From Escherichia coli (GTDB lineage Bacteria; Pseudomonadota; Gammaproteobacteria; Enterobacterales; Enterobacteriaceae), in the NCBI RefSeq assembly GCF_024298765.1, contig NZ_CP101210.1: 64,000 bases of DNA; one strand, 5' to 3'. Below are positions 46,593 through 61,726 of the stretch, in pieces. Within the stretch, counting starts at the first letter, position 1, and each line of letters begins with the position of its first letter. The position numbers were made by a program, and so were the translations under genes. The notes beneath the pieces are model-generated. The model had not been told where the DNA came from, searched no databases, and saw nothing but the letters and a program-made list of their open reading frames with translations.

Positions 46593-46624
46593 TGGTGGAG
46601 CTGGCGGGAGTTGAACCCGTGTCC
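46593..46624 (-). other. att core: duplicated 3' end of tmRNA (ssrA), 32 nt, no tmRNA body
   Basis: Reverse strand reads GGACACGGGTTCAACTCCCGCCAGCTCCACCA, one mismatch to the remembered E. coli ssrA 3' terminus; upstream sequence does not continue as ssrA. Confidence 0.7.
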
Positions 46625-47050
46625 ATAGTTATGTAATTCATTGAATTTAAATAGCCAAATATTGTTGATTTTACAAGCGGCTCTTTTGCGGAACTTTTTC
46701 TGTCCTGTTACTGTCTTACTATTTATTTTAAAATAGTTTCATTTGGAATTAATGGTTTGTGGTTGCAGTTTCGGAGATAGATAGCATTTTTTGCTAAAAA
46801 ATATTTTTATAAAAAATGTGTGTAAAAATGATGTTATGCACAGATTTATGCACAGAGGCTTTGTGATAAACCAGATTGTTTTGGATAAGTTTGTTTTTTT
46901 GTGATTTGTCAACAATATTATTGACTCTTGTTACTAAAGTGAGTGTTTTCTAAGGTGGTCAGAAGTTGTCCCTTCATGTAATCTTATTAGCCATAAAGAA
47001 CAAAAAATAATTCAACATCATTACCAACTATTTGTAAGATAAGGTTTTTA

Positions 47051-47866
47051 ATGTTGCAGCCAGCAAAAAAAGCATCAGTTATTAGCGCGCGGCTAACGAA
47101 ATACCTCAAAGATGGAGTGAGGATTGATGACTTTAGCTTTAGAAGGATGTTACGTGAGATTGAAGCACTTAGAGATCCTGTCTCTGAGGACTATCTTTTA
47201 GCGTTGGTCTATGGTGCACATGGCCAAGTGAATGAGGCGATAGGCTTCTTTGAGCGTTCCTTGCAGGTATGCCATAATGAGGTTGTTGCAAAGAATTTTC
47301 TTGTTTTCTTGTCAGATTACGGTACGTTGAAGAAAAGCTTTGAAACAAGCATTAAGCTTGCTGAAAGCTTCATATCCCCGTTTATTTATCTTCAAGCTTA
47401 TGAAAACTCCCTCTTTATGGGGAAGATGGCGTTGGCGGAGAAGTATTTCCAGTCATACTCTAAATTGTTCGGAGATAAGGAGCCTGAAAAAATGGACAAC
47501 AATCTTGATGAAGTTGTTTCCCAGGTCGAATCCTTTAAGCAACGTGCCGATCTTTCTGGTTTAGAATATGAACTTATTTTCAATAATGTAGCCAATGTCA
47601 TGGATTCTCAGAAGGTTCATCTTTCGGGAATGCGTTTTTATAATATTTCGGAAGAGAAAGTGAATGCGATTGTATTCATGACAAAGTCTTCTGATGCTGA
47701 ACAAATCGCTGATATGAATATTGAGCTTGCTTTTTCAATGGCTGAGCACGATTGTTTAGTCGGTAAAGATTTTGCTGTTTGGTTTGAATGTAAAGACACA
47801 CATATTGAGCAGAATGCTATCTCCGAATTAGGTCTGATTACCCGGAGGGTTGCACATGCCGGTTAA
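47051..47866 (+). CDS. Hypothetical protein, gene 1 of a two-gene cargo operon between att core and int
   Basis: 271-aa ORF, about 40 percent GC by eye, no TM, no recognizable catalytic motif; stop overlaps the start of the next ORF. Confidence 0.6.
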   Translation: MLQPAKKASVISARLTKYLKDGVRIDDFSFRRMLREIEALRDPVSEDYLLALVYGAHGQVNEAIGFFERSLQVCHNEVVAKNFLVFLSDYGTLKKSFETSIKLAESFISPFIYLQAYENSLFMGKMALAEKYFQSYSKLFGDKEPEKMDNNLDEVVSQVESFKQRADLSGLEYELIFNNVANVMDSQKVHLSGMRFYNISEEKVNAIVFMTKSSDAEQIADMNIELAFSMAEHDCLVGKDFAVWFECKDTHIEQNAISELGLITRRVAHAG

Positions 47867-48239
47867 TAGTCAAGATTTTCTCGGTTTTGCAAAAGACTGT
47901 CATCAACGTAATGACGAAATCGGCTATCGAAATGCTATAGCAAGATCCTACTATGGCGCTTACCATCATGTCTTGCCTTGTATGGTAAACGGGCCGAAAG
48001 ACAGTCATCAGGGGCTAATCAATTATTTGCAGGGCGATGCTTCAAGAGGAAGTGAAGTATATGAAGCTAGATATCTAAAAGGGATTAGTTTTATCCTGAG
48101 TCAACTTAAAGCTCAGAGGATTGTTGCAGACTATCGACTTGATCAATCGGTCACTTCTAAACAGTCTGAAGTTGCGATTCTAACAACTGAGAGGCTCTTT
48201 GCTAAGTGTACGGAAATGCTTAAATCGAGAGCCTCCTAA
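47856..48239 (+). CDS. Hypothetical protein, gene 2 of the cargo operon (unverified HEPN-like R-x6-H motif)
   Basis: ATG at 47856 preceded by SD ggaggg; about 127 aa; motif RSYYGAYHH; terminator hairpin aaagccacttaagtggcttttttt immediately after. Confidence 0.55.
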   Translation: MPVNSQDFLGFAKDCHQRNDEIGYRNAIARSYYGAYHHVLPCMVNGPKDSHQGLINYLQGDASRGSEVYEARYLKGISFILSQLKAQRIVADYRLDQSVTSKQSEVAILTTERLFAKCTEMLKSRAS

Positions 48240-48252
48240 TTGATAAAGCCAC

Positions 48253-49425
48253 TTAAGTGGCTTTTTTTGTGATATTGCTGGTCGTATTACCGTCATATTC
48301 CTTTAAATATAAACCATAATGACGAAATAACATTTCCGGCCCTTTATGCCCCATTTGAGCTGCAAGCCAAAACAGGTTTGCTCCCCGGCTGATATGGCGG
48401 GTGGCGAATGTATGCCTAGTTTGATATGGATTTCTGTAACGAATACCTGCTTTTCGCAATGTTGGCACCCATGCTTTTTTCCTGATTGCATCAGCACTTG
48501 CCCAAGGCTTATTGGTCTTTGGATCTTCAAAGACAGTAGTATCCTTCATGAATGTAAATGGCTTCTGATTTATCAGCGCCAACATTGCCTCTTCTGTCAG
48601 TTCAACTTTCCGAGTACCTGCTTTTGTCTTTGTCCCTTTGATAACACCGACAACACTTGCGCTCTGGACATGGGCAGTTTTTCCAACAAAGTCGATATCA
48701 CGCCATCGAAGGGCACATAATTCAGAACTACGCAGGCCTGTATGTATAGCGAACCGGAACAGATTTTCCCATTGTTTGTTTCCGGCTGCTGCTAGTAATG
48801 CATCAACTTCTGCTGGTGATAGCGGATCAACTACGTAGCTGCTTTCTGCTTCTGACTTATCACTTTGGTAGCGCGAAGCTGTTACTAACGATACGGGGTT
48901 AATTTGAAGTACCCCATCGGTCACGGCTTCATCAAGTGCTGACCGCAGGAAAGATAACTGGTTGCGAATTGTTTTTAAGGTCGTTTTCTGATTTTGAATC
49001 CACGCTTTCAGGGTTGCTGGTGTTAATTCACTTGCAGGGCAAATGTGAAGTGAGGCTAACGCACTACGGCATTTTTTATAGCCACCAATCGTAGAGGGTG
49101 AAAGTTTTCTTGTTTCGCAGATTTCAAGATATTCGTCCAGGTACATCTTTACCGTTTTGCCTGCAGCAGCATTACCAAAAATTTTCAAACGAGCAGAACG
49201 GGGAAAATATTCTGCATAAATGAATGTTCCCCTTTCGATCTTATTATGGATTTCGCCGAGTGTACGCTCGGCGTATTTAATGTTCTTTGGTGTTACTTCC
49301 AGATTGGAAAGCGGCTCACGACATCTAACTCCTTTGTAGGTGAAAGTTATATTGATCGTTTCTCCCTGGCGGTGTTTCCTGATTGTTACGCCGCGCGGTA
49401 GTTTGAGCAGTTTTGTCTGGCCCAT
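48253..49425 (-). CDS. int: Phage integrase (tyrosine recombinase)
   Basis: 390-aa ORF with N-terminal arm-binding-like domain and C-terminal catalytic region (RHTFATRH ... LFRHYGLY). Confidence 0.9.
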   Translation of the reverse strand: MGQTKLLKLPRGVTIRKHRQGETINITFTYKGVRCREPLSNLEVTPKNIKYAERTLGEIHNKIERGTFIYAEYFPRSARLKIFGNAAAGKTVKMYLDEYLEICETRKLSPSTIGGYKKCRSALASLHICPASELTPATLKAWIQNQKTTLKTIRNQLSFLRSALDEAVTDGVLQINPVSLVTASRYQSDKSEAESSYVVDPLSPAEVDALLAAAGNKQWENLFRFAIHTGLRSSELCALRWRDIDFVGKTAHVQSASVVGVIKGTKTKAGTRKVELTEEAMLALINQKPFTFMKDTTVFEDPKTNKPWASADAIRKKAWVPTLRKAGIRYRNPYQTRHTFATRHISRGANLFWLAAQMGHKGPEMLFRHYGLYLKEYDGNTTSNITKKAT

Positions 49426-49592
49426 TTTGCAACCTCACTAAGATCAATCCACCTCTCCTTAACGCCTTCAACCTTTAAAACCTGAACACCTTCACGCCAA
49501 ACACCGCGCTGTACACGTTTGTTTATTGCTTCAGGAGTTTCGCCAGTTTCTTTGCAATAAGTTGAGATAGGAACACAATCGAGGTTCAGCAT
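49386..49592 (-). CDS. Excisionase-like small DNA-binding protein
   Basis: Small ORF overlapping the int start; start placed at MLNLD with SD GGAG; position typical for xis. Confidence 0.5.
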   Translation of the reverse strand: MLNLDCVPISTYCKETGETPEAINKRVQRGVWREGVQVLKVEGVKERWIDLSEVAKWARQNCSNYRAA

Positions 49593-49633
49593 ACGTTTCT
49601 CCATTATCCCGTCTGCACACGGGAGCAACATTA

Positions 49634-50524
49634 TTAACGAATAGTGTCGTTACTTTGAAGTACAGCAAATGCCATTAATACTTCTAAAGTATATCTTCTA
49701 TAAAATTTAACAAAACCAACATAGAAAACATAGACGAAGAAAAAGCTAAGCATTATTGAAAGTAAACTATAAAGATAATCACTATGAGTACATAATCGAT
49801 AAATAAAGGTTGGAACTGATACCCAAAATGAAATTATAAAGATTAAACATATGTTTCTGCAAAAACCATATAATGCAACATAGTTTTGAATTTTTGTTTG
49901 ATGTTGTTTTGAAAACTCATAAACATAATGATATGCCAATCTGAAGAGATCATCATCAAGTCCGTTTTTATCTTGTAATAATTGGCGATTTGTTATGAAC
50001 TTTTTCTCATAACCTTCTTTGATCATTAACCATGTTGTATTAGCTAAATGAAATGGTAGAGATTGAGAATAACATAGTTTTTGTGTTATAAAATCCCATA
50101 GTATTATTGGGCATAATACGCATTTGATTATGCGATTCTTTATTTTTGTTTTTTTATCAGCGCTTCTCTCATCGCATGATGGGCTACAAATGCTTTCTGA
50201 GGTATCTATCAATTTTTTAAATAGATATTTGGAAGGATATCCTAATTCTTTATTCATGTATTTTTCGATAAAAAATGCTGACGTGATAGAAATAAAATGT
50301 CCAGCTATATAAGATATAATAACTATTGAAGCGTAGTTCAAAATGCCAAAGATTTGACTTTGACCTCTGAGCAATTCACTTAAGTCAATAACAATATCTA
50401 GATCGAATGTCAAACCACAGAAATACATTAATAGGATAAAAAAACCACCTGGTATTAAATATCCAAGAAAGTCATAGAATGAGAATGGATTTTGATTCAT
50501 TGTTGCTCTCCAATAATTTTTCAA
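49634..50524 (-). CDS. Hypothetical polytopic membrane protein (very AT-rich cargo gene)
   Basis: 296-aa ORF with hydrophobic segments at both ends; roughly 30 percent GC by eye; sits between xis and the YfdR-like gene. Confidence 0.6.
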   Translation of the reverse strand: MKNYWRATMNQNPFSFYDFLGYLIPGGFFILLMYFCGLTFDLDIVIDLSELLRGQSQIFGILNYASIVIISYIAGHFISITSAFFIEKYMNKELGYPSKYLFKKLIDTSESICSPSCDERSADKKTKIKNRIIKCVLCPIILWDFITQKLCYSQSLPFHLANTTWLMIKEGYEKKFITNRQLLQDKNGLDDDLFRLAYHYVYEFSKQHQTKIQNYVALYGFCRNICLIFIISFWVSVPTFIYRLCTHSDYLYSLLSIMLSFFFVYVFYVGFVKFYRRYTLEVLMAFAVLQSNDTIR

Positions 50525-50608: not shown

Positions 50609-51145
50609 TTACGACTCAGTTAACTCTTTAAAGCGTTCCATAAACATCCCATAGGTATGGCCTGGCGACAGTGGAATAACTTTGAACATCTCTGTTGCCG
50701 GGATACCTTCCAGTACGGGCCAGAAAGAGCCATCATCAAGCCCGAGATCGCGGCGTTCGGTTGCCAGCATGATGAGATCGGCATATTTCACGGGCGTACT
50801 CATAACCGGGGGTAACCCGTATTTCTCACGGATTACGGCGTCTATTTTTTCTTCCATCCGTTTATAGTCAGGAAGAAGGCGTTTCAGTGGAGCCGGGATG
50901 TCCTGGCAATACGCTTCTGTTGCATCATGCATTAACGCTTCAAAAGCAAATTCCTGCGGTACCAGCTGGCTGCAAAGCACCGCATGTTGGGCGACGCTGT
51001 AGAAGTGTGAAAGATGGCCGGCAAAGCGACAGATATTTGAAAGGGAAACCGCGATATCGTTAATATCGATGTTGTCTTTATTTATCCTGTCATAATAAAA
51101 ATGTTTCCCGGAAAAAGTTTTAATAAATGACATTTTGTTCTCCAC
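50609..51145 (-). CDS. HD-domain phosphohydrolase (YfdR-like 5'-deoxynucleotidase family)
   Basis: 178-aa ORF with H...HD motif (AQHAVL ... LMHDATEAY); same size as CPS-53 YfdR. Confidence 0.7.
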   Translation of the reverse strand: MENKMSFIKTFSGKHFYYDRINKDNIDINDIAVSLSNICRFAGHLSHFYSVAQHAVLCSQLVPQEFAFEALMHDATEAYCQDIPAPLKRLLPDYKRMEEKIDAVIREKYGLPPVMSTPVKYADLIMLATERRDLGLDDGSFWPVLEGIPATEMFKVIPLSPGHTYGMFMERFKELTES

Positions 51146-51261
51146 GTTATATGCGCTGCACCGCGCTGAATTTTGGTTAAAGAAAACCCTCGCCTTCAGG
51201 CGATTATTGAGTCAATTACGTTTCCATAAATGCCCCCGCAGGGGCATTTGCAGTAATGAAA

Positions 51262-52086
51262 TCAGGCGGTGAAAGTCCCAATAAAGGTTTCTACTTTGCT
51301 GTCCTTGAATTTCTCAACAAGCAGATCACGAAATTCGTTAGCCATATCTTCCTGCACCGCTTCCAGCTGAATAATGCGCAGAACCAGTACAGGACGATCG
51401 CCAGTGATAATGCTGAGGCGTAATTTAAACGGACGTTCTTTCAGACCTTCAAACGGAACGCATTTAAACTCAAATGCCACTGGCATAATGTCTTTGGTCT
51501 TCGCTTCGACAGACTCCATCAGGGAGCGTTTGCCGCTGAAGTCATTATCTTCAAAATCAGCAGTCTGGTTTGCTTCAATCGTGATTTTACGGACCGCCGC
51601 AGCCGCTTTTGTTGCCTGAATGGTGTCACCATTAGCATCAAAGCCCACAAGATAGTCGGCCCAGTCTTCGATCCATTCTGCCAGTGATTTCTGGGAGTTA
51701 CGCTCTCCATTAACAGACAACAGAGCAGAGAACGGTGCTGTCTTTTTCAGTTTGAGAGTGGCGGTGTTATCTGCGTGACCTGGTTCATCAATAGTACCCA
51801 GGTTAAGCACACTGACGGCACGCATATTATCAGCATCGATAAAGCAGCGGGTGCCTTCATCTGCAAGATCTTTAGAATAACGGGTAAAGTCATCAATGCT
51901 GGCAGTGGAAAGCGCACCACGGAAACGGAAGCGATTTAAATTAAATTTTTCCAGATCATGAATGCGGAAATTCTCAGGCAATGCCACAGCATCGGCACCA
52001 ATCTTACTGATAATTTCATTAACACCCTGAGCAGAAATAAGAGCATGGATTTGATTAATTGCGGTTGCGTCTAAGTTCTGAGACAT
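51262..52086 (-). CDS. Phage protein, YfdQ-like (DUF2303 family)
   Basis: 274-aa ORF adjacent to the YfdR-like gene; size and neighbourhood match CPS-53 YfdQ (from memory). Confidence 0.6.
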
Positions 52087-52151
52087 AATAAGTCCTCACT
52101 ATATAAAGATATTCAGTGATGAGATAAATAATCAGTTAATTAAGAACGATA

Positions 52152-52514
52152 TTAATGACCTGCTGCGCGGAGTTTTCCGTCAGGCTCACCGGCAAGAGTC
52201 AGTAATTGTCCCTGGTCTTCCTGCAGAATAGTCAGGCGACCACCGCGATTGACATACATCGGCGTTTCGGTGGTGTCTTCTTCGGAAATTTTCCCACGGT
52301 TAGTCGGGCGAACATATGAGAGTTTGTGTTTGATTTTCACACGGTTCTCATCAAATGGTTCGATTTCCAGGTTGAGTGAGACCTTACCTTTGGTTTTCGT
52401 GTTCATCACACCGGAAGCGACTTCACTGAGAACTGCGCCGATTTTGGTTTCAAATACGCCGCCGTCCAGCTCCCCGATAAATGCCTGCACATCAGTACTG
52501 CGTTCGCTAGCCAT
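52152..52514 (-). CDS. Phage hypothetical protein, possibly YfdP-like
   Basis: Start placed at MASERSTDVQ (ATG ~52514) with SD AGGAG; about 120 aa; the longer ORF-track extension runs through an 18-bp inverted repeat. Confidence 0.55.
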   Translation of the reverse strand: MASERSTDVQAFIGELDGGVFETKIGAVLSEVASGVMNTKTKGKVSLNLEIEPFDENRVKIKHKLSYVRPTNRGKISEEDTTETPMYVNRGGRLTILQEDQGQLLTLAGEPDGKLRAAGH

Positions 52515-52857
52515 TTTGCTGCTCCTCATCATATCGACCCTGCAAGGCCGATTAGTTTCTCCACAAAACAGAGAAGAACACCTGCGGTGGCAGCCGCCCG
52601 GATGGATTGGGTTATGAGCCCGTCGTCCGATGATGTTCTTCTCTGTTTTGTAAAAAGAGCGGTACCAGCCGGAAGCAAGTGTACAAACTGGTACCGCCAA
52701 AGCAGTGGCTGTTGTGGTGACCGGTGCTGATCTCCGGCTTGCGGTTATTTCAGACTCTCACGGGCGTTTAATTGCCCCGCCGAACAGCTCTTTTCCGCAA
52801 TAGCTGCAATGTCTTTCGCGCATCAGCCTGCGCATTCACCACAACTCTAAAAACAAA

Positions 52858-52908
52858 TGTAGGATATCCAACGTGTGGGTGTCAAGAGTTTATGTTGGTT
52901 ATCCTACA
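52858..52908. promoter_or_regulatory. OL-like operator pair (repressor binding palindromes)
   Basis: tgtaggatatccaac (52858-52872) and tgttggttatcctaca (52893-52908); same half-site family as the OR sites. Confidence 0.6.
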
Positions 52909-52971: not shown

Positions 52972-53625
52972 TCAAAAATCCATTATTACTTGTTTGACAA
53001 GACCAACTATTCTGCAGTTCTCACCGCATTCAATAGTTTTATAGTTAGGATTTAGTGGGACGAGATACCTGTTCGGCCAGTCCTCAACAAATTTTTTGAG
53101 TGTCGCTTCTTGCCCACCATTGATATGGGCAACAACGATTTTTCCGTTAATACACTCTGTATCAATAATATCTGGCTCTACGATAACGATAGAACCTTCT
53201 GGTATCGATGGTGAGCCGAGGGGATTGGTCATTGAATCACCACGGACCCGTAGTGCAAATGCCATTTCTGATACAAGGGCGGTAGTATAAACCCACTCTT
53301 CAGCATCTTCTTTCCTGACACCAGGCTCCGTCATTGTCCATGAACCCGCCTGAACCCACGAGATGAGGGGGACTTTTTTAACTGCGAATATTTCAGGTTT
53401 TAGATTTATCTTTGGTTCAGGCGAGCCTTTTCCGCTAACAAGCCACAGAGGATCGCATTTAAGTGCGTTGGCTAGGGCTTGAAGGTTGGCTCCATTTGGT
53501 TGGTAGTCGTCCTTTTCCCATCCAGTAACCGTGACACGGTTCACACCAGTCAAATCAGCCAGTGCTTGTTGTGTCAGGTTCAGTTCTTTTCGCCTTTGGC
53601 GAATACGATCACTCATGTTCATCAT
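52972..53625 (-). CDS. CI-like prophage repressor (HTH + S24 LexA-type peptidase domain)
   Basis: 217-aa ORF; N-terminal HTH (LNLTQQALADLTGVNRVTVTGWE), C-terminal GDSM serine motif; divergent from the cro-like gene. Confidence 0.88.
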   Translation of the reverse strand: MMNMSDRIRQRRKELNLTQQALADLTGVNRVTVTGWEKDDYQPNGANLQALANALKCDPLWLVSGKGSPEPKINLKPEIFAVKKVPLISWVQAGSWTMTEPGVRKEDAEEWVYTTALVSEMAFALRVRGDSMTNPLGSPSIPEGSIVIVEPDIIDTECINGKIVVAHINGGQEATLKKFVEDWPNRYLVPLNPNYKTIECGENCRIVGLVKQVIMDF

Positions 53626-53689
53626 GTAGGCAATCCTACCACATGCTCATGTAGGATTCTTGACATTGATATGTTGGATATCCTACATT
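53625..53689. promoter_or_regulatory. OR-like operators and PR/PRM region
   Basis: Palindromes tgtaggcaatcctacc (53625-53640), tgtaggattcttgaca (53650-53665), tgttggatatcctaca (53672-53687); TTGACA -35 at 53660-53665; first operator abuts the cI start codon. Confidence 0.6.
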
Positions 53690-53945: not shown

Positions 53946-54530
53946 GTGGGTAAAGAACCTGAATGGAAAGTTGATAAACAACCAGCATGGCTGGTGGCAG
54001 CAATACGAAGAACGATTGCTGATTTACCTCATGGCTATGAGGAAGCAGCAGAAATTCTTGGTTTGTATAAATCTGATGATATCACCCCAGCAAAAGATCA
54101 ATTGCATAACAGACTGCGTAGCGGTGGGGATCAAATTTTTCCACTTGAGTGGGCCATGGTTTTACAGGATGCCAGTGGTACCAGGCATGTAACAGATGCA
54201 ATAGCCCGTCGTAGTAATGGGGTGTTTGTGCCGCTGGTGGTCATTGATGACATTGACAATGGTGACATTAATCAGCGGCTGATGGAGTCAATAGAATGGA
54301 TTGGCAAGCATTCCCAGTACTTACGCAAGGCAACTGCTGATGGAGTTATTGACCAAGCTGAGCGTGAGCAAATCGAAGAGAACAGCTACCAAGTAATGGC
54401 GAAGTGGCAGGAGCATTTAACACTGTTATTTCGTGTTTTTTGTGCGCCGGAAAAGAGTAACGCCCGCGAGTGTGCAGCTCCGGGCGTCGTGGCGTCGATT
54501 GCTTCTGGTTGTGGAGAAACTAACGCATGA
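53946..54530 (+). CDS. Phage regulatory protein, CII-like (tentative)
   Basis: 194-aa ORF directly after cro in the cII position; family assignment from position and vague similarity only. Confidence 0.45.
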
Positions 54531-54865
54531 ACAGTTTAACAACACACTACCGTCGTTCGCAACTGATTGCGCTTCCTGTACCGGGTGGAAAAGCGAAGGT
54601 GGAGTATTGCTATGCAGTGAATGTACCAGGTGATAGGGAAATTGTAACCCACAGCTTTGCAGAGTGGGCTGTGGGTGATTTCAACCGGCAGAAGGAGACA
54701 GTCCTTTGCGACAAGTTAACCGCTGGTTCAAAGATCACTACGGAGTGCCCGTCAGAGTCATTCGTTGGGAGCCGGAAACACAACGGGTTATCTACCTCCG
54801 TGAAGGCTATGAACATGAATGCTTCAGTCCGCTCGAACAGTTTCGTCGTAAATTCAGGGAAATAG
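54527..54865 (+). CDS. Hypothetical phage protein (C-terminal part doubtful)
   Basis: 112-aa ORF starting at the ATGA overlap with the upstream stop; the last ~50 aa are low-complexity and overlap ORF 54706-54918 out of frame. Confidence 0.35.
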
Positions 54866-54918
54866 AGGTCGGTCATGAGCCTGTTAATGACATCCCAGCC
54901 CATTGTGATAAATCGTGA
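54706..54918 (+). CDS. Hypothetical phage protein (TTG start)
   Basis: 70-aa ORF with strong SD gaaggaga about 7 nt upstream of TTG; protein-like composition; overlaps the O-like gene start. Confidence 0.45.
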
Positions 54919-55867
54919 TCTTGCATGCCGTATTGGTCTGAATGAGGCAATTGTGTTGCAGCAGCTTCATTACTGGCTGAATGAAACGAATTCAGGCACT
55001 GAGCATGGCGGAATTCGCTGGGTTTATAACACGACAGAACAGTGGCTGGAGCAGTTTCCGTTCTGGTCAGAGTCCACTCTGAAACGCACATTTGCAAGCC
55101 TGAAATCACTTGGGGTTTTGCGTCGCGAGCAACTCAATAAATCGAAGCGTGACATGACCAACTTCTACACGATCAACTATGAAAGTGAGCTTTTAGAAGA
55201 GGTCAAAGTGAACGAATCCATCAGGTCAAAATGCACTTCTCCATCGGGTCAAAGTGACCTGATGGATGAGCGCAAAATGACACGATCCATTGGTTCAAAA
55301 CGACACGCTGTCATCGGGTCAAAATGGCCCAATGATCTTACAGAGAATACAACAGAGATTACTACAGAGAATAAAACCTCTTCTCGTCCGGACGCTTCGC
55401 AACCGGACACGCAGATGGCTGAACAGGATTTTTTAACTCGCCATCCTGATGCGGTTGTATTCAGCCCTAAAAAGCGCCAGTGGGGAACGCAGGATGATTT
55501 GACCTGCGCACAGTGGCTCTGGAAAAAAATCATCGCTCTGTACGAGCAGGCCGCCGAATGTGACGGCGAAGTGGTACGTCCTAAAGAACCGAACTGGACA
55601 GCCTGGGCAAACGAAATTCGCCTGATGTGTGTACAGGATGGGCGTACTCACAAACAAATCTGCGAGATGTACAGCCGCGTCAGCCGCGATCCGTTCTGGT
55701 GCCGTAACGTGCTCAGCCCGTCGAAGCTGCGGGAAAAATGGGATGAGCTTTCCCTGCGCTTATCGCCGTCCGTCAGCACGTACACAGAAAAACGCGAAGA
55801 TCCGTACTTCAAAGCCAGTTACGACAACGTGGACTACAGCCAGATCCCGGCAGGATTCAGGGGGTGA
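54875..55867 (+). CDS. Replication initiation protein, lambda O-like, with internal iterons
   Basis: 330-aa ORF; N-terminal O-like domain; four to five direct DNA repeats of the ggtcaaaatg type at ~55196-55330. Confidence 0.8.
   Translation: MSLLMTSQPIVINRDLACRIGLNEAIVLQQLHYWLNETNSGTEHGGIRWVYNTTEQWLEQFPFWSESTLKRTFASLKSLGVLRREQLNKSKRDMTNFYTINYESELLEEVKVNESIRSKCTSPSGQSDLMDERKMTRSIGSKRHAVIGSKWPNDLTENTTEITTENKTSSRPDASQPDTQMAEQDFLTRHPDAVVFSPKKRQWGTQDDLTCAQWLWKKIIALYEQAAECDGEVVRPKEPNWTAWANEIRLMCVQDGRTHKQICEMYSRVSRDPFWCRNVLSPSKLREKWDELSLRLSPSVSTYTEKREDPYFKASYDNVDYSQIPAGFRG
55196..55330. repeat. Origin iterons inside the O-like gene
   Basis: Direct repeats gaggtcaaagtg, caggtcaaaatg, cgggtcaaagtg, tggttcaaaacg, cgggtcaaaatg spaced ~20-25 bp. 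Confidence 0.7.
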
Positions 55868-55869
55868 TC

Positions 55870-55962
55870 ATGAGTCTTTTGAATGAAGTTCAGAAATTCA
55901 TTGAAGCCCATCCGGGGTGTACTTCCGGAGACATTGCGGATGCTTTTTACGTGGGGGCTTAA
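55870..55962 (+). CDS. Small ORF (30 aa) translationally coupled between the O-like gene and the methyltransferase
   Basis: ATG at 55870 preceded by SD aggggg; stop overlaps the methyltransferase ATG (TAATG). Confidence 0.3.
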   Translation: MSLLNEVQKFIEAHPGCTSGDIADAFYVGA

Positions 55963-56615
55963 TGAGTAATAAATATTGTCAGGCGCTGGTGGAGCTGCGG
56001 AACAAACCATCCCATGAACTGAAGGAGGTGGGCGATCAGTGGCGCACGCCGGACAGCATTTTCTGGGGAATTAACACCTTGTTTGGCCCGTTTGTTCTGG
56101 ATCTGTTCACTGACGGTGATAACGCCAAATGTGCCGCGTATTACACGGCGGAAGACAACGCGCTGGCGCATGACTGGTCAGAACGCCTTGCGGAGCTTAA
56201 AGGTGCTGCCTTTGGCAATCCCCCATACAGTCGCGCCAGTCAGCATGAGGGGCAATACATCACCGGCATGCGTTACATCATGAAACATGCCAGTGCCATG
56301 CGTGATAAGGGCGGGCGCTATGTTTTCCTGATCAAAGCTGCCACCAGCGAAGTGTGGTGGCCGGAAGATGCGGACCATATTGCTTTTATTCGCGGGCGTA
56401 TTGGTTTTGAACTGCCTGCCTGGTTTATCCCGAAAGATGAGAAGCAGGTGCCGATAGGCGCTTTCTTCGCTGGTGCTATTGCTGTTTTTGACAAGACCTG
56501 GAAGGGACCGGCAATCAGCTACATCGGGCGCGATGAACTTGAGGCATGTGGTGAGGCCTTTCTGGCGCAGGTTCGCCAGCAGGCAGAAAAACTGGTCAGG
56601 GAGATGGTGGCATGA
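55962..56615 (+). CDS. Phage DNA N6-adenine methyltransferase (Dam-like)
   Basis: About 218 aa from MSNKYCQALVEL; motif IV FGNPPYS. Confidence 0.85.
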   Translation: MSNKYCQALVELRNKPSHELKEVGDQWRTPDSIFWGINTLFGPFVLDLFTDGDNAKCAAYYTAEDNALAHDWSERLAELKGAAFGNPPYSRASQHEGQYITGMRYIMKHASAMRDKGGRYVFLIKAATSEVWWPEDADHIAFIRGRIGFELPAWFIPKDEKQVPIGAFFAGAIAVFDKTWKGPAISYIGRDELEACGEAFLAQVRQQAEKLVREMVA

Positions 56616-57001
56616 AGCTGATCCTGCCTTTTCCGCCCAGCGTGAACACGTACTGGCGACACCCCAACAAAGGGGCGTTTGCTGGTAAGAGCCTGATAAG
56701 CGCGGCGGGGCGAAAATTCCAGAGCGCGGCGTGCGCAGCAATAGTTGAGCAGTTACGTCGTCTGCCGAAACCAACGTCGGCACCTGCTTCAGTGGAGATC
56801 GTGTTGTTTCCTCCGGATAACCGGATCCGCGATCTGGACAACTATAACAAGGCGCTGTTTGACGCCCTGACCCACGCGGGTGTGTGGGAAGACGACAGTC
56901 AGGTGAAAAGAATGCTGGTGGAGTGGGGACCGGTTATCCCGGGAGGGAAGGTCGAGATCACTATCAGTAAGTACGAGAAAACGGCGGGTGCAGCCGCCTG
57001 A
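56612..57001 (+). CDS. rusA: Holliday junction resolvase RusA-like
   Basis: 129-aa ORF; RusA-like pattern (PPSVNTYWRH ... DLDNYNKALFDALTHAGVWEDDSQV). Confidence 0.85.
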   Translation: MKLILPFPPSVNTYWRHPNKGAFAGKSLISAAGRKFQSAACAAIVEQLRRLPKPTSAPASVEIVLFPPDNRIRDLDNYNKALFDALTHAGVWEDDSQVKRMLVEWGPVIPGGKVEITISKYEKTAGAAA

Positions 57002-57020
57002 TTAAGAGGAGAAACGAAGT

Positions 57021-57818
57021 ATGAATAATCTGATGGTCATTGATGGTATTGAAGTTCGTCGTGATGCTTATGGTCGTTACAGCCTGAACGATCTGCACAG
57101 GTCTGCCGGTTCTCTGGATAAGCATAAGCCTGCATTCTGGCTCCGCAATGAGCAAACTGAACGTTTAATAAGCGAGTTGCAGATTTGCAACTCGGTCAAT
57201 ATAGAGCCAGTTAACGTTATTCGTGGCGGAAATAACCAGGGGACGTATGTCTGCAAAGAACTGGTGTATGCCTATGCAATGTGGATCAGCCCGTCATTCC
57301 ATCTGAAGGTGATCCGTACTTTCGACATGGTAACCAGCGCACCGGAAAAATTATCCGGACAGGCTGCTGACAAGATGCAGGCTGGTGTGATCCTGCTGGA
57401 CTTTATGCGCCGGGAATTAAACCTGTCTAACTCATCAGTGCTTGGAGCCTGTCAGAAGCTTCAGGAGGCTGTTGGCTTACCGAATCTGGCACCGCGCTAT
57501 GCCATTGATGCTCCTGCTGATGCACTCGATGGCTCAAGCCGCCCGACACTGTCACTGAGTGCACTGCTGAAGCAGTATGGTATCCGCCTGACAGCTAATC
57601 AGGCATATCACCAGATGGCGAAGCTGGGGATCGTTGAACAACGTGAACGATACAGCCGCACTGCGATTAACAACATCAAAAAATTCTGGTCGCTGACGGC
57701 GAAAGGCTGCATGTTCGGCAAGAACATCACCAGTCCCGCAAATCCGCGCGAGACGCAGCCGCATTTCTTCGAATCCCGATTCCCTGAGCTGTTAAAGCTG
57801 CTCGATACCGTTCATTGA
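57021..57818 (+). CDS. KilA-N domain protein (antirepressor-like)
   Basis: 265-aa ORF; N-terminal KilA-N-like region (VRRDAYGRYSLNDLHRSAG ... KPAFWLRNEQTERLI). Confidence 0.7.
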   Translation: MNNLMVIDGIEVRRDAYGRYSLNDLHRSAGSLDKHKPAFWLRNEQTERLISELQICNSVNIEPVNVIRGGNNQGTYVCKELVYAYAMWISPSFHLKVIRTFDMVTSAPEKLSGQAADKMQAGVILLDFMRRELNLSNSSVLGACQKLQEAVGLPNLAPRYAIDAPADALDGSSRPTLSLSALLKQYGIRLTANQAYHQMAKLGIVEQRERYSRTAINNIKKFWSLTAKGCMFGKNITSPANPRETQPHFFESRFPELLKLLDTVH

Positions 57819-57819
57819 G

Positions 57820-58815
57820 GTGACCGTGAGAGCACTACTGACCCCTGAAATTGCCCCGCGTATGGGGATCGTATTGTTCAGACCAGGTTCAGAGCTGATG
57901 CCCTTGTTTATGCAGGGGCGTGTCCTGCTGGAGCCTGAGCCGGAACGTTATTCATCTTTCGCCAGTGGTGCCGTTCCGGCGGCATCACAACCGCTGGCGG
58001 ATGATCCTGCCGTTCGGGCCGTGTTCCGCAATGAGGCAGTGATCCGTCGTGCTGGTGGCGTGGAATGTCTTGAAAGCTGGTTACTTCGTGAAAAAGGCTG
58101 CCAGTGGCCTCATTCCGGCTGGCACAGCGAGAACATGACAACAATGCGACACGCTCCGGGCGCAATCCGTCTGTGCTGGCACTGCGATAACCAGCTGCGC
58201 GATCAGTTCACGGAACGGCTGGAATCAATGGCAACGGATAACTGTGCCCGCTGGGTGTTGTCTGTTGTGCGTCGGGATCTCGGTTTTGATGACAGTCATG
58301 TTGTGACAATGCCGGAACTGTGCTGGTGGCTGATTCGTAATGATCTGGCGGATGCCTTACCGGAAAGTGCAGCCCGTAAGGCACTGAGATTACCGAAGCC
58401 TGTTGTGCCGTCTGTTACCCGGGAAAGTGACCTTGTGCCTTCGGTTCCTGCCACCAGCATCATCCAGGATAAGGCGAAAAAGGTGCTGGCGCTGAAAGTG
58501 GATCCGGAGTCGCCGGAGTCTTTTATGTTACGCCCAAAACGTCGCCGCTGGGTTAATGAAAAGTACACGCGCTGGGTTAAGACACAGCCGTGTGCATGTT
58601 GTGGAAAGCCCGCTGATGATCCCCACCACCTGATAGGTCACGGTCAGGGTGGAATGGGAACAAAAGCGCATGACCTCTTTGTGTTGCCTTTGTGCAGAAA
58701 GCATCACGACGAGCTGCATGCGGATACCGTGGCATTTGAAGAGAAGTATGGCTCTCAGCTGGAGCTGATATTTCGTTTTATCGATCGTGCGCTGGCAATT
58801 GGCGTATTGGCGTAA
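57820..58815 (+). CDS. DUF968-family phage protein (YdfU-like)
   Basis: 331-aa ORF with GTG start; C-terminal Cys/His-rich region (QPCACCGKPADDPHHLIGHG ... CRKHHDELH); usual position between rusA and Q. Confidence 0.65.
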   Translation: MTVRALLTPEIAPRMGIVLFRPGSELMPLFMQGRVLLEPEPERYSSFASGAVPAASQPLADDPAVRAVFRNEAVIRRAGGVECLESWLLREKGCQWPHSGWHSENMTTMRHAPGAIRLCWHCDNQLRDQFTERLESMATDNCARWVLSVVRRDLGFDDSHVVTMPELCWWLIRNDLADALPESAARKALRLPKPVVPSVTRESDLVPSVPATSIIQDKAKKVLALKVDPESPESFMLRPKRRRWVNEKYTRWVKTQPCACCGKPADDPHHLIGHGQGGMGTKAHDLFVLPLCRKHHDELHADTVAFEEKYGSQLELIFRFIDRALAIGVLA

Positions 58816-58828
58816 GTGGAGAACGAGC

Positions 58829-59581
58829 ATGAACCTTGAAGCCTTACCAAAATATTACTCCCCAAAATCTCCAAAATTGAGCGATGACGCACCGGCGACA
58901 GGCTCTGGTGGTTTAACAATTACGGATGTAATGGCTGCGCAGGGGATGGTGCAGTCGAAAGCACCGCTTGGGTTTGCCTTATTCCTGGCAAAAGTTGGTG
59001 TTCAGGATCCTCAGTTTGCGATTGAAGGTCTGCTCAATTACGCGATGGCACTGGATAACCCGACATTGAATAAATTGAGTGAAGAAACCCGGCTACAGAT
59101 CATTCCTTACCTTGTGAATTTTGCCTTTGCTGATTATTCCAGGTCTGCGGCAAGTAAGGCTCGCTGTGAGCATTGTGCTGGTACTGGATTTCATAATGTA
59201 TTGCGCGAGGTGGTGAAACACTCCAGAAGCGGGGAATCTGTTATCAAGGAAGAGTGGGTGAAGGAACTATGTCAGCATTGTCATGGTAAGGGAGAAGTCA
59301 GCACAGCGTGCAGAGGGTGTAAGGGTAAAGGTATTGTCCTGGATGAAAAAAGAACCCGGCTTCATGGTACGCCTGTTTATAAGATTTGTGGGCGTTGCAA
59401 TGGTAACCGTTTTAGCCGTTTACCAACCACACTGGCGCGGCATCATGTCCAGAAGCTGGTACCAGACCTGACGGATTATCAGTGGTACAAAGGATATGCA
59501 GATGTCATTGATAAACTGGTTACAAAGTGCTGGCAGGAAGAAGCATATGCAGAGACACAATTGAGAAAAGTGACAAGATAA
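58829..59581 (+). CDS. Late gene antiterminator Q
   Basis: Start at MNLEALPKYY with SD ggaga; zinc-finger-like CEHCAGTG ... CQHCHGKG ... CRGCKGKG ... CGRCNG; followed by late promoter/terminator region. Confidence 0.8.
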   Translation: MNLEALPKYYSPKSPKLSDDAPATGSGGLTITDVMAAQGMVQSKAPLGFALFLAKVGVQDPQFAIEGLLNYAMALDNPTLNKLSEETRLQIIPYLVNFAFADYSRSAASKARCEHCAGTGFHNVLREVVKHSRSGESVIKEEWVKELCQHCHGKGEVSTACRGCKGKGIVLDEKRTRLHGTPVYKICGRCNGNRFSRLPTTLARHHVQKLVPDLTDYQWYKGYADVIDKLVTKCWQEEAYAETQLRKVTR

Positions 59582-59691
59582 ATGATTTTCGCCGAAGATG
59601 GCGACATGATGCTTGCATTTTTCAAAAAATCTGGTTAGGATTCTCCTAACGATGGGCTTTGTATGTCTGCCGTTAACGAAATCATAACAAA

Positions 59692-59713
59692 CCTCGCTTC
59701 GGCGGGGTTTTTG
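59692..59713 (+). terminator. tR'-like rho-independent terminator after the late promoter
   Basis: Hairpin cctcgc-ttcg-gcgggg followed by tttttgctttt. Confidence 0.7.
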
Positions 59714-59731
59714 CTTTTCTGGAGGTCAATA

Positions 59732-59989
59732 ATGCAGGGCGAAAAGCAGCAGCCATATTTTTTTAACCCTGGTATGACTGTTGAACAGCTTGAAGACTGG
59801 CTGGAGCAGCAAAAGCTTCATCTAAGCCGCTATAACCGTCTGGTAAAAGAAAAAGCAGAGCTTGAAGAACGGCTCAGTGATATTTCTGTGGAAATTGAAC
59901 GAATGTCTGCTGGTGGTTTTAACGGAAAGTTGAGTTTCCCCTGGGAGTCAAGTTCGCTTCTGAGAAATCATCAACAGGGTAGTGTTTGA
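59732..59989 (+). CDS. Hypothetical small protein (85 aa) immediately downstream of tR'
   Basis: ATG at 59732 with SD ggagg; coiled-coil-like (LEQQKLHLSRYNRLVKEKAELEERLSDISVEIERM). Confidence 0.5.
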   Translation: MQGEKQQPYFFNPGMTVEQLEDWLEQQKLHLSRYNRLVKEKAELEERLSDISVEIERMSAGGFNGKLSFPWESSSLLRNHQQGSV

Positions 59990-60068
59990 CTGAAATAATA
60001 AACAGACTGTCATTAAGATCCCTTCCCCTCATATCTGAGAGGACCAACAGCAATTAAGAGGGGGCTAA

Positions 60069-60455
60069 ATGTCCGATCCGATTTCCGGTACTGGGCTGGC
60101 TGGTGGTGCCCTGACGGGTGCCAGTGTTTATGGACTGCTGACCGGAACTGATTACGGCGTTGTATTTGGCGCATTTGCAGGGGCTGTATTCTACATAGCA
60201 ACAGCAGCAGATCTGAGTGCATCGCGTCGACTGGCATATTTTATCGTGTCATATATTGCCGGGATTCTTTGCTCTGGGTTGGTTGGCTCCAAGCTGGCGA
60301 ACTTGACCGGATACAGTGATAAACCTCTGGATGCTATTGGTGCCGTAATCGTCTCTGCTTTAGCCGTTAAAATCCTGACGTTCCTGAATAATCAGGATAT
60401 CGGCTCGCTGGTGGCGCTCATAACGCGCCGGGGAGGTTCAGGTGGAGCTAAATGA
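60069..60455 (+). CDS. Putative holin (multi-TM small membrane protein)
   Basis: 128-aa ORF with about three hydrophobic helices; first gene of the lysis cassette; SD agaggggg. Confidence 0.6.
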   Translation: MSDPISGTGLAGGALTGASVYGLLTGTDYGVVFGAFAGAVFYIATAADLSASRRLAYFIVSYIAGILCSGLVGSKLANLTGYSDKPLDAIGAVIVSALAVKILTFLNNQDIGSLVALITRRGGSGGAK

Positions 60456-60723
60456 CCCGACAGCAACTATAAATGCGCTGTTATGTGCTTGTGTTGTTAT
60501 TACTCTGATGTTTTATCGTCGTGGTGATTCGCGGCATCGTCCTTGGGTTTCACGTTTAGCCTGGCTGATTACTGTTACATACAGTGCTGTTCCGTTGGCC
60601 TATCTCTGTGGGATTTATCCTCATTCCTCATGGCCCATTATCGTGGCGAACACTATTTTTCTTTCCGTGCTGGTGGCCGTCAGAGGCAACGTTGCACGTC
60701 TGGTTGATCATCTGAGGCACTAA
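60442..60723 (+). CDS. Putative second holin/antiholin-like membrane protein
   Basis: 93-aa ORF with three hydrophobic segments; overlaps neighbours at both ends. Confidence 0.55.
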   Translation: MELNDPTATINALLCACVVITLMFYRRGDSRHRPWVSRLAWLITVTYSAVPLAYLCGIYPHSSWPIIVANTIFLSVLVAVRGNVARLVDHLRH

Positions 60724-61337
60724 TGAACCAACAATTATTTCAAAAGGCGGCTGGTATTAGCGCCGGGCTGGCTGCGCGCTGGTTTCCGCACATTGATGCG
60801 GCGATGAAGGAATTCGGCATTACAGCACCAGCGGATCAGGCAATGTTTATCGCTCAGGTAGGCCATGAGTCGATGGGGTTTAGCGCCGTAGTTGAAAATT
60901 TTAACTACACACCATCTGCGCTGGTGGCGACGTTCGGAAAGAGGATCACACAGCAGCAGGCTGATGCCCTTGGCAGAACATCCGGACATGCAGCTCGTCA
61001 GGATGCTATTGCCAATCTGGTGTATAGCAACCGACTGGGTAACAAAGCACCAGGTGATGGCTGGAAATATCGTGGTAGAGGATTAATTCAAATCACTGGC
61101 CTCCATAATTATCGCATCTGTGGCGCGGCGCTGAAGTTAGATCTGGTGACTTCACCTGAACAACTGGAACAGGAACTACAGGCTGCGCGCTCAGCTGCAT
61201 GGTTCTACACCTCTAAAGGTTGCATGATCTACGGTGCCGATATTAACCGTGTTACGCGCATCATTAACGGCGGTCTGAACGGTATTGAGGATCGTAAGGT
61301 CCGATACAACAAGGCGCGGGCGGCGCTGCTGGTATGA
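60723..61337 (+). CDS. Endolysin, glycoside hydrolase family 19 (chitinase-like)
   Basis: 204-aa ORF; GH19-like catalytic region (FIAQVGHESMGF ... YRGRGLIQITG); ATGA overlap with upstream gene. Confidence 0.8.
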   Translation: MNQQLFQKAAGISAGLAARWFPHIDAAMKEFGITAPADQAMFIAQVGHESMGFSAVVENFNYTPSALVATFGKRITQQQADALGRTSGHAARQDAIANLVYSNRLGNKAPGDGWKYRGRGLIQITGLHNYRICGAALKLDLVTSPEQLEQELQAARSAAWFYTSKGCMIYGADINRVTRIINGGLNGIEDRKVRYNKARAALLV

Positions 61338-61726
61338 AGATGAGTTATTGGGCGCTCATTTTAACGTTTATTGCTTGTGTCGCTGGTGGTCTTGTCTGGT
61401 CAGCGAATCACTATCATGGAAAGTTTCTGGAGGAGCAGAAGCGTGCTGATGCTGCGGAACAGCGAGCTGATTCTACTGAGGCTATCACCGCGAATGTTCT
61501 GCGTACTATGGCAATAACGAACATCATTCAGGAGGCGAATCAACATGCAAAACAGCAGATCGCACTGGAGTCACAGAGAACCCAGGAAGATATCAAAGTG
61601 GCTGTTGCGGATGATGATTGTGCTTCACGTCCTGTGCCTGCTGCCGCTGCTGACCGGTTGCGGAAGTACGCGAACAGTTTACGTCCAGGTTCCGGTAGTT
61701 CCGTTACCAGCCAGCCTGACGGCTGA
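61334..61726 (+). CDS. Rz-like inner-membrane spanin (i-spanin)
   Basis: 130-aa ORF; N-terminal TM then coiled-coil periplasmic domain; follows the endolysin. Confidence 0.75.
   Translation: MKMSYWALILTFIACVAGGLVWSANHYHGKFLEEQKRADAAEQRADSTEAITANVLRTMAITNIIQEANQHAKQQIALESQRTQEDIKVAVADDDCASRPVPAAAADRLRKYANSLRPGSGSSVTSQPDG

Follow-up and report, generated by a model that had tools for sequence, protein, structure and literature searches.

Described counterparts of the genes considered here include those of CPS-53 (KpLE1), a cryptic prophage remnant of Escherichia coli K-12 in which yfdP, yfdQ and yfdR are followed by yfdS, yfdT and torI. The segment yfdQ-yfdR-yfdS-yfdT was isolated as a multicopy suppressor of hda-185 over-initiation (Noguchi and Katayama 2016, PMC4776307), and suppression in K-12 needs yfdQ, yfdR and either yfdS or yfdT, with yfdP being dispensable (PMC4776307). 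In multicopy, yfdQRS or yfdQRT inhibits initiation at oriC in vivo, and extracts are inhibitory to oriC replication in vitro; purified K-12 YfdR binds domain I of DnaA, an interaction that depends on Phe46, and is a competitor of DiaA and DnaB (PMC4776307; review PMC5448010). The authors proposed that this effect served the growth of the ancestral phage, much like that of lambda P (PMC4776307). Here we analyze a copy of yfdP, yfdQ and yfdR on the minus strand of a 64,000-nucleotide stretch of E. coli DNA (contig NZ_CP101210.1, assembly GCF_024298765.1; hereafter, the window), where the three genes open the early-left operon, under repressor control, of a lambdoid prophage that appears to be complete.

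Positions 50609-52514 of the window hold three consecutive open reading frames (ORFs; i.e., 52152..52514, 120 aa; 51262..52086, 274 aa; and 50609..51145, 178 aa when read from a GTG), which an original prediction, made from the letters alone, had assigned by size and order to yfdP, yfdQ and yfdR. BLASTP against the CPS-53 proteins of an MG1655 chromosome bears out both the assignment and the order: YfdP is identical at 119 of 120 residues (99%), YfdQ at 272 of 274 (99%) and YfdR at 164 of 173 (95%; E 2e-129). The block is also collinear with MG1655 DNA at 96.5% identity, with equal gene order and orientation and the same spacing. These three genes are orthologs of K-12 yfdP, yfdQ and yfdR, the resemblance being far above chance.

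The block is an already known and widespread set of early genes in lambdoid phages. Its DNA is matched in 3011 of 5426 complete E. coli genomes (in 2455 of those 3011, over at least 80% of the block), and it is 96–98% identical in 46 phage records, including SfV, SfIV, mEp460, cdtI and Stx2 phages. Annotations of SfV (orf32-31-30), Ayreon and an Stx2a phage show this arrangement as well; and in the early-left operons of SfV, SfIV, mEp460, cdtI, Stx2a and Stx2c phages, Ayreon and the LLS/ST64B type, the block stands, at that same level of DNA identity, between the CI repressor and xis/int. Zheng, Casjens et al. (PMC12315714) likewise describe the cluster as common in lambdoid early-left operons (e.g., LLS, ST64B, ArgO145). 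Hence, the locus adds a further instance of a block that more than half of the complete E. coli genomes and numerous phages share; for one of its members, YfdR, a biochemical activity and a role in binding DnaA have been published before. The nearest copy (99.1%) is in NZ_CP148393.1, a circular record of 44.6 kb labeled as a plasmid of E. coli. Besides a full set of lambdoid genes, this record contains a ParA-family gene, and it may be a phage-plasmid or a circularized phage genome.

The constant and variable members of the block can be told apart in related viral loci. An alignment of YfdP yielded 80 E. coli loci, all of which are 100% identical in YfdP and therefore serve co-occurrence counts rather than covariation. 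In the 72 E. coli viral contigs whose flanks are complete, yfdQ comes after yfdP every time, yfdR is present in 68, yfdS in 44 and yfdT in 19, and the membrane ORF that follows yfdR in the window occurs in none. Outside of E. coli, the order repressor, YfdP, YfdQ, YfdR is kept in Klebsiella and Yersinia ruckeri, with each protein about 58–64% identical to that of the window; Serratia and Leclercia keep this order too. In Cronobacter, the yfdR position is taken by an unrelated gene of 411 aa, and yfdR is truncated in Xenorhabdus. YfdP and YfdQ form an invariant pair, to which YfdR is added as a very frequent third member, with variable cargo after it.

Because GGAG lies six bases upstream of ATG 51133, GTG 51145 of the mechanically called ORF overlaps the ribosome-binding site, and RefSeq gives 174 aa for the 99%-identical YfdR copy in NZ_CP148393.1, the true start of yfdR is most likely ATG 51133, with a product of 174 aa, not 178. 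Within the size match invoked by the original prediction (120, 274 and 178 aa), the 178-aa agreement with K-12 YfdR is therefore at least partly accidental, since the ORF in the window gains four codons at its GTG and stops four codons before the K-12 stop. The H...HD motif noted in this last gene is, by contrast, kept on alignment. Across 52 diverse homologs, the metal-site residues (in 174-aa numbering) are present almost throughout (H50 in 52, H69 and D70 in 51 each, D119 in 50); R36, E73, D78, K84 and E126 are likewise kept in 50–52 of the 52, and the HD residues align with those of PDB 2gz4 and of YfbR. With its H...HD...D metal-binding residues present and aligned, YfdR belongs by sequence to the HD superfamily and is likely to be an active enzyme. 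Neither a loss of similarity to the K-12 proteins nor a loss of the HD motif, the two outcomes named in advance as speaking against the assignment, was seen on BLASTP or alignment.

Within this superfamily, the profile comparisons place YfdR in an Atu1052/YfdR branch and, by curated thresholds, outside of the YfbR family. Its match to Atu1052 of Agrobacterium (PDB 2gz4) is at the family level and runs the full length of the protein (residues 4-172), with E 3e-12 when YfdR alone is compared and 9e-30 when a profile of its homologs is used, whereas the same profile reaches YfbR at only E 1e-4 over about 45 residues across the hDAxE..GD..P.K motif. YfdR also scores below the cut-offs of both the Pfam YfbR-like family PF12917 (24.4 bits vs. 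25.9) and the NCBIfam YfbR equivalog NF003009 (20 bits vs. 122). YfdR does have in common with YfbR, a 5'-deoxynucleotidase (PDB 2paq), the H...HD...D site, the motif just named and a 5'-deoxynucleotidase annotation, but the relationship is a remote one and the nucleotide affinity of YfdR is reported to be much lower. Atu1052, for its part, is a structural-genomics entry without assigned function, and differs from YfdR in being chromosomal rather than phage-borne and in having extra insertions (207 vs. 174 aa). The YfdR family comprises 22,789 representatives of 50%-identity clusters at E <= 0.001. Four such representatives (P0242, P0248, P0249 and P0257), of 354–401 aa, contain two matched stretches and look like tandem-duplicated HD proteins.

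YfdP and YfdQ are among the commonest lambdoid early genes with unexplained biochemistry. YfdQ matches DUF2303 (PF10065) over profile positions 2-269 of 269 (E 1.7e-92; 309.9 bits vs. a cut-off of 26.6), and the structure of a homolog has been deposited as PDB 9o7m, 'YfdQ Protein', with 36 chains (E 3.5e-44; about 40% identical to YfdQ of the window, as estimated by eye from the alignment). No paper on 9o7m was found in the literature, this entry was not among the matches from the fold-library search, and the fold comparison of YfdP and YfdQ returned no informative relatives. A local Pfam scan assigned YfdP to no family; its 99%-identical representative P0121 and all 120 listed homologs have the precomputed family PF27127 (YfdP). 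The mechanically called yfdP ORF extends to TTG 52700, and the start at ATG 52514 is supported by the N-termini of 39 homologs and by an upstream GAGGAG. Neither the in-frame TTG extension of yfdP nor a 49-aa ORF with a TTG start in the leader finds support in homolog N-termini. The two proteins make up a tightly linked, co-evolving pair, for which the C-terminal tail of YfdP (residues ~78–112), conserved but of low confidence, is a candidate interface.

That the trio is the first set of genes in the repressor-controlled early-left operon of an SfV/mEp460/LLS-like lambdoid prophage follows from the repressor directly upstream and from promoter and operator motifs shared with the rightward promoter. 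Read rightward, the order is integrase, excisionase, membrane ORF, yfdR, yfdQ, yfdP, a 457-nt intergenic region and a CI-type repressor; divergent from the repressor are genes for a Cro-like protein, a YmfL/CII-like protein, an O-like replication protein, Dam, RusA, KilA-N, DUF968, Q, holin and endolysin. A promoter scan detected a candidate leftward promoter, TTGACA-18-TACATT, at 52885..52856 (10 of 12 matches), accompanied by two operator-like palindromes at 52858-52873 and 52893-52908. The rightward promoter (53660-53689) has the same hexamers and has in common with the leftward one an 18-nt block, GTTGGATATCCTACATTT. The palindromic motif occurs nine times in the window, where 1.1 occurrences would be expected, and seven of these lie within the two promoter regions. 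Placement in an early leftward operon, as originally predicted, is thus upheld by the S24 repressor upstream and by the candidate promoter with its operator-like palindromes.

It is this regulatory context that lends the copy a modest value. In K-12, homology to the window ends 19 nt upstream of yfdP (at 52533 of the window) and, on the other side, some 5 nt beyond the stop codon of yfdR, so that K-12 is without the promoter, the operators and the leader found in the window; and the K-12 genes after yfdR are yfdS, yfdT and torI, in whose place the window has the membrane ORF, excisionase and integrase. Unlike the cryptic K-12 remnant, the copy analyzed here lies in a prophage that is, as far as the window shows, apparently complete, and that retains the native promoter, operators and leader. 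Such a native context offers a better background than the K-12 remnant for deletion and induction experiments.

In the part of the prophage that lies within the window, no N gene, no Rec module and no helicase loader was recognized; replication is represented by the O-like gene only, and the early-left operon contains only yfdP, yfdQ, yfdR, the membrane ORF, xis and int. Chi sites (GCTGGTGG) number 12 on the plus strand within 7.4 kb (53990-61382) and two on the other strand, vs. eight in 46 kb of host DNA. Judged on this prophage part, the element falls within the LLS class that Zheng et al. 2025 described, with O-only replication, many Chi sites and no Rec module, as do the phages named above, which likewise have no N, no Rec module, O-only replication and a high Chi density. 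It differs from those phages in its immunity region, its CI type being present in 2 of the 80 loci, and in the gene after yfdR, which in those phages is usually yfdS-like (DUF551 in PMC4776307) and in the window is the membrane ORF.

Between the leftward promoter and yfdP is a leader of about 340 nt (52515-52850), whose fold has a z-score of -5.7 relative to shuffled sequence. Its proximal part comprises a GC hairpin (~52698-52658) followed by a U-run (52656-52652), together resembling an intrinsic terminator; a 25-bp hairpin (52656-52558), whose 5' arm starts in the U-run and whose 3' arm ends in the conserved GUGGAGAAA; and a small hairpin (~52552-52533) just before the ribosome-binding site. 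When homologous leaders are folded individually, this three-part architecture recurs in Klebsiella, Leclercia, Yersinia, Xenorhabdus and Serratia, and Cronobacter has a shorter leader containing the long and the small hairpins without the GC hairpin and U-run. Across genera, the long stems measure 22–32 bp and have largely different inner sequences (z from -3.3 to -7.9); that of Xenorhabdus comprises a stem of ~25 bp and a few further pairs at the base. The conservation of the leader rests on this per-sequence folding, without a formal covariation statistic: RNAalifold on MAFFT alignments of the leaders gave a weak consensus (-13, -7 and -5 kcal/mol), as MAFFT fails on fully diverged stems. 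Because the proximal leader is upstream of yfdP in all 80 E. coli viral loci and the CI type of the window in only two, this proximal part is linked in its spread to yfdP rather than to the immunity region.

The distal domain of the leader is closed by a helix between GUUGUGGUG (52845-52837) and CACCACAAC (52719-52711), 9-mers that are found together only here in the window. In SfV and Ayreon, the enclosing helix is kept around different internal hairpins. Three sequence variants of this domain were seen in E. coli and Shigella phages, and the window's own variant also occurs in one Yersinia ruckeri locus.

A conserved leader RNA may explain how early-left genes are expressed in N-less phages of this type. 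No small ORF or N-like gene was found in the leader, and no Rfam family matches it. Zheng et al. (PMC12315714) speculated that N-less LLS-type phages use a put-like RNA, a role for which this leader is a candidate. Like put of HK022, it would act in cis as a structured RNA encoded directly after the leftward promoter of a lambdoid phage without N; unlike put, which is about 70 nt long and has two stem-loops (PMC9378689), the leader of about 340 nt has a multi-hairpin domain, a terminator-like hairpin and a hairpin of 22–32 bp. Comparison of the leader with the HK022 leftward (putL) region by blastn gave no similarity, and an identification of the leader as put was set aside, both the sequence and the architecture being different. 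An equally good reading to put-like antitermination is that the leader combines a terminator with an RNase III-type processing hairpin. The lambda N leader is an example of a terminator-like leader combined with such a processing hairpin.

A second site of possible control is the spacer between yfdQ and yfdR, which contains two terminator-like hairpins. The first, at ~51248-51229, pairs AAAUGCCCC with GGGGCAUUU across a loop; the second, UCGCC-UGAA-GGCGA at 51203-51190, is followed by GGGUUUUCUUU. The depositors of phage Ayreon annotate a terminator at this position, and most of the seven genera folded retain the first hairpin (AAAUxCCCC-loop-GGGGxAUUU), though not its exact sequence. Such conservation of a hairpin despite sequence change suggests that yfdR expression is either set apart from that of yfdPQ or dependent on antitermination.

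The function of the block had been regarded in the original prediction as not established, which remains apt for YfdP and YfdQ, whose roles are unexplained, but not for YfdR, for which DnaA binding, a block of initiation and a phosphatase assay have been published. We hold, with about even confidence, that the main role of the block is interference with host replication initiation via YfdR and DnaA. In a lysogen, the block would be kept silent by the S24-type CI repressor bound to operators overlapping the leftward promoter; upon SOS-induced cleavage of the repressor, or upon infection, the operon would be transcribed through the long structured leader. YfdR, as a putative small metal-dependent HD phosphohydrolase, would then most likely bind host DnaA through the latter's N-terminal domain, at the Phe46 patch used by DiaA and DnaB, and, helped by YfdQ, would lower the DnaA-DiaA and DnaA-DnaB interactions, such that initiation at the host oriC is damped early in lytic growth. 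A weak phosphatase activity of YfdR on deoxynucleoside monophosphates (dNMPs) would, under this scheme, be a secondary or unrelated property. For the allele in the window, DnaA binding and the initiation block are predicted from the literature on the 95%-identical K-12 YfdR. With an O-like gene as its sole replication gene and no helicase loader recognized, the prophage could plausibly need to interfere with the interaction between host DnaA and DnaB.

Several observations weigh against interference with initiation as the main role, and keep our confidence in it no more than moderate. In K-12, deletion of yfdQRST was without effect, and the phenotype appeared on overexpression only, which the authors conceded could be an artifact (PMC4776307). 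The gene set of the oriC inhibitor (i.e., yfdQ and yfdR with yfdS or yfdT) is incomplete in the window: tblastn with K-12 YfdS, YfdT and TorI found nothing in the 64 kb. As the counts given above show, yfdS and yfdT are also variable among phages (44/72 and 19/72). That catalytic residues are so strictly conserved in a family with over 22,000 representatives argues that it is catalysis, and not DnaA binding, that is selected family-wide. Finally, the fold searches with YfdP and YfdQ were uninformative, leaving their roles unexplained.

Alternatively, the block might remodel nucleotide pools, with YfdR acting mainly as a 5'-deoxynucleotidase on dNMPs early in infection, pools of deoxynucleoside triphosphates being shifted in favor of the phage, and YfdP and YfdQ having unrelated roles. 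The catalytic HD quartet and the residues resembling a substrate site are intact and strongly conserved, the hDAxE...GDxxxPxK motif is common to YfdR and YfbR, and RefSeq and PHROGs name YfdR a 5'-deoxynucleotidase or dNMP phosphatase. Phosphatase activity of K-12 YfdR on nucleotides was assayed earlier and is reported, at second hand, in PMC4776307 (citing Zimmerman 2008) and in PMC10870394. However, PMC4776307 gives nucleotide affinities much below those of YfbR and terms the function 'elusive'; deletion of yfdR in an engineered strain left the yield of cytidine monophosphate unchanged (PMC10870394); YfdR falls below the curated YfbR cut-offs, with the profile E-value of 1e-4 to YfbR comparing poorly with 9e-30 to Atu1052; and a dNMP phosphatase would waste precursors that the phage itself needs. 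The suggestion in the original prediction that the HD protein alters nucleotide pools is thus favored by its intact catalytic residues, but is the less supported function in light of the low affinities, the unchanged yield and the failed YfbR thresholds, and we regard it as doubtful.

Two more far-reaching readings concern the surroundings and the joint action of the known genes. The leader could be an undescribed cis-acting RNA (either a put-like antiterminator or an attenuator with an RNase III switch) that controls the N-less early-left operon, and YfdP, YfdQ and YfdR could form a device with which O-only, Rec-less lambdoid phages take DnaB from host DnaA to replicate their own DNA. Both readings are tentative and rather unlikely. 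The residual novelty of the locus lies in the YfdP-YfdQ pair and the leader RNA.

The position of the block, which is that of the lambdoid Rec module, raises the possibility of a hidden DNA-transaction or recombination module, in which YfdP and YfdQ (with YfdR) replace Red- or Erf-type Rec functions by, for example, binding or annealing single-stranded DNA or recruiting a helicase where the phage has an O-like replication gene only. This prophage has no recognizable Rec genes, and the 36 chains in the PDB entry of the YfdQ homolog could be read in the same way; yet ArgO145 has the cluster plus a complete Rec module, and for this reason Zheng et al. (PMC12315714) judged a hidden recombination role unlikely. 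We, too, find it improbable. Just as improbable is a role in anti-defense or host takeover, in which the HD hydrolase destroys a nucleotide-derived immune signal or toxic nucleotide and oligomeric YfdQ (with YfdP) sequesters or blocks a host factor: the genes are among the first expressed and widely mobile among prophages, a hydrolase that looks active accompanies a protein whose deposited form is a large assembly, and the neighboring operon positions are variable with cargo-like genes, but no literature support was found, the data identify no target, and YfdP, YfdQ and YfdR matched no model of PADLOC, which covers defense and not anti-defense proteins.

Table 1. Coordinates in the window of the yfdP-yfdQ-yfdR block, its candidate regulatory elements and adjoining genes
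Feature	Position	Strand	Basis
yfdP ortholog, 120 aa	52152..52514	-	K-12 identity; PF27127 by homologs; start support
yfdQ ortholog, DUF2303 family, 274 aa	51262..52086	-	K-12 identity; PF10065; PDB 9o7m; PHROG 210
yfdR ortholog, predicted HD-domain phosphohydrolase, 174 aa	50609..51133	-	K-12 identity; GGAG; RefSeq; HD residues; 2gz4; PHROG 318 (E 1e-106)
yfdQ-yfdR spacer with two terminator-like hairpins	51134..51261	-	terminator scan; spacer folding; Ayreon annotation
Proximal structured leader of yfdP, 191 nt	52515..52705	-	folding; 7 genera; 80/80 loci
Distal leader domain, 145 nt, 3-4 hairpins	52706..52850	-	folds; closing helix kept in SfV and Ayreon
Candidate early-left promoter and two operator-like palindromes	52856..52908	-	promoter scan; hexamers shared with rightward promoter
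CI-type repressor	52972..53625	-	Peptidase_S24 E 3.7e-25, HTH_3 E 1.1e-15 (Pfam)
Rest of leftward operon downstream of yfdR	48253..50524	-	membrane ORF, excisionase, integrase
Multi-pass membrane ORF, 288-296 aa	49634-50524, likely start 50500	-	PHROG 12528
Excisionase	49386-49631	-	PHROG 2917
Integrase	48253-49425	-	Pfam integrase domains

Features at the left side of the prophage (Table 1) include the membrane ORF, which stands where yfdS and yfdT follow yfdR in K-12 and is present in 1 of the 80 related viral loci. This ORF has a weak PADLOC match (E 1.4e-5) to Csx27, an accessory membrane protein of type VI-B CRISPR systems. On the minus strand 1.6 kb beyond the integrase, and adjoining glaH, is a 48-nt fragment of transfer-messenger RNA (46593-46640; RF00023, E 4.5e-5, below the gathering score), which probably represents the attachment-site repeat of an element targeting ssrA, and hence the left end of the prophage. 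Between this fragment and the integrase, two overlapping ORFs with 38% GC occupy 47051-48239 on the plus strand; the first, of 271 aa, has a weak TPR match (PHROG 17809) and the other, of 129 aa, a weak HEPN-like match in PADLOC (PHROG 5176), and together they look like cargo or a defense-type gene pair.

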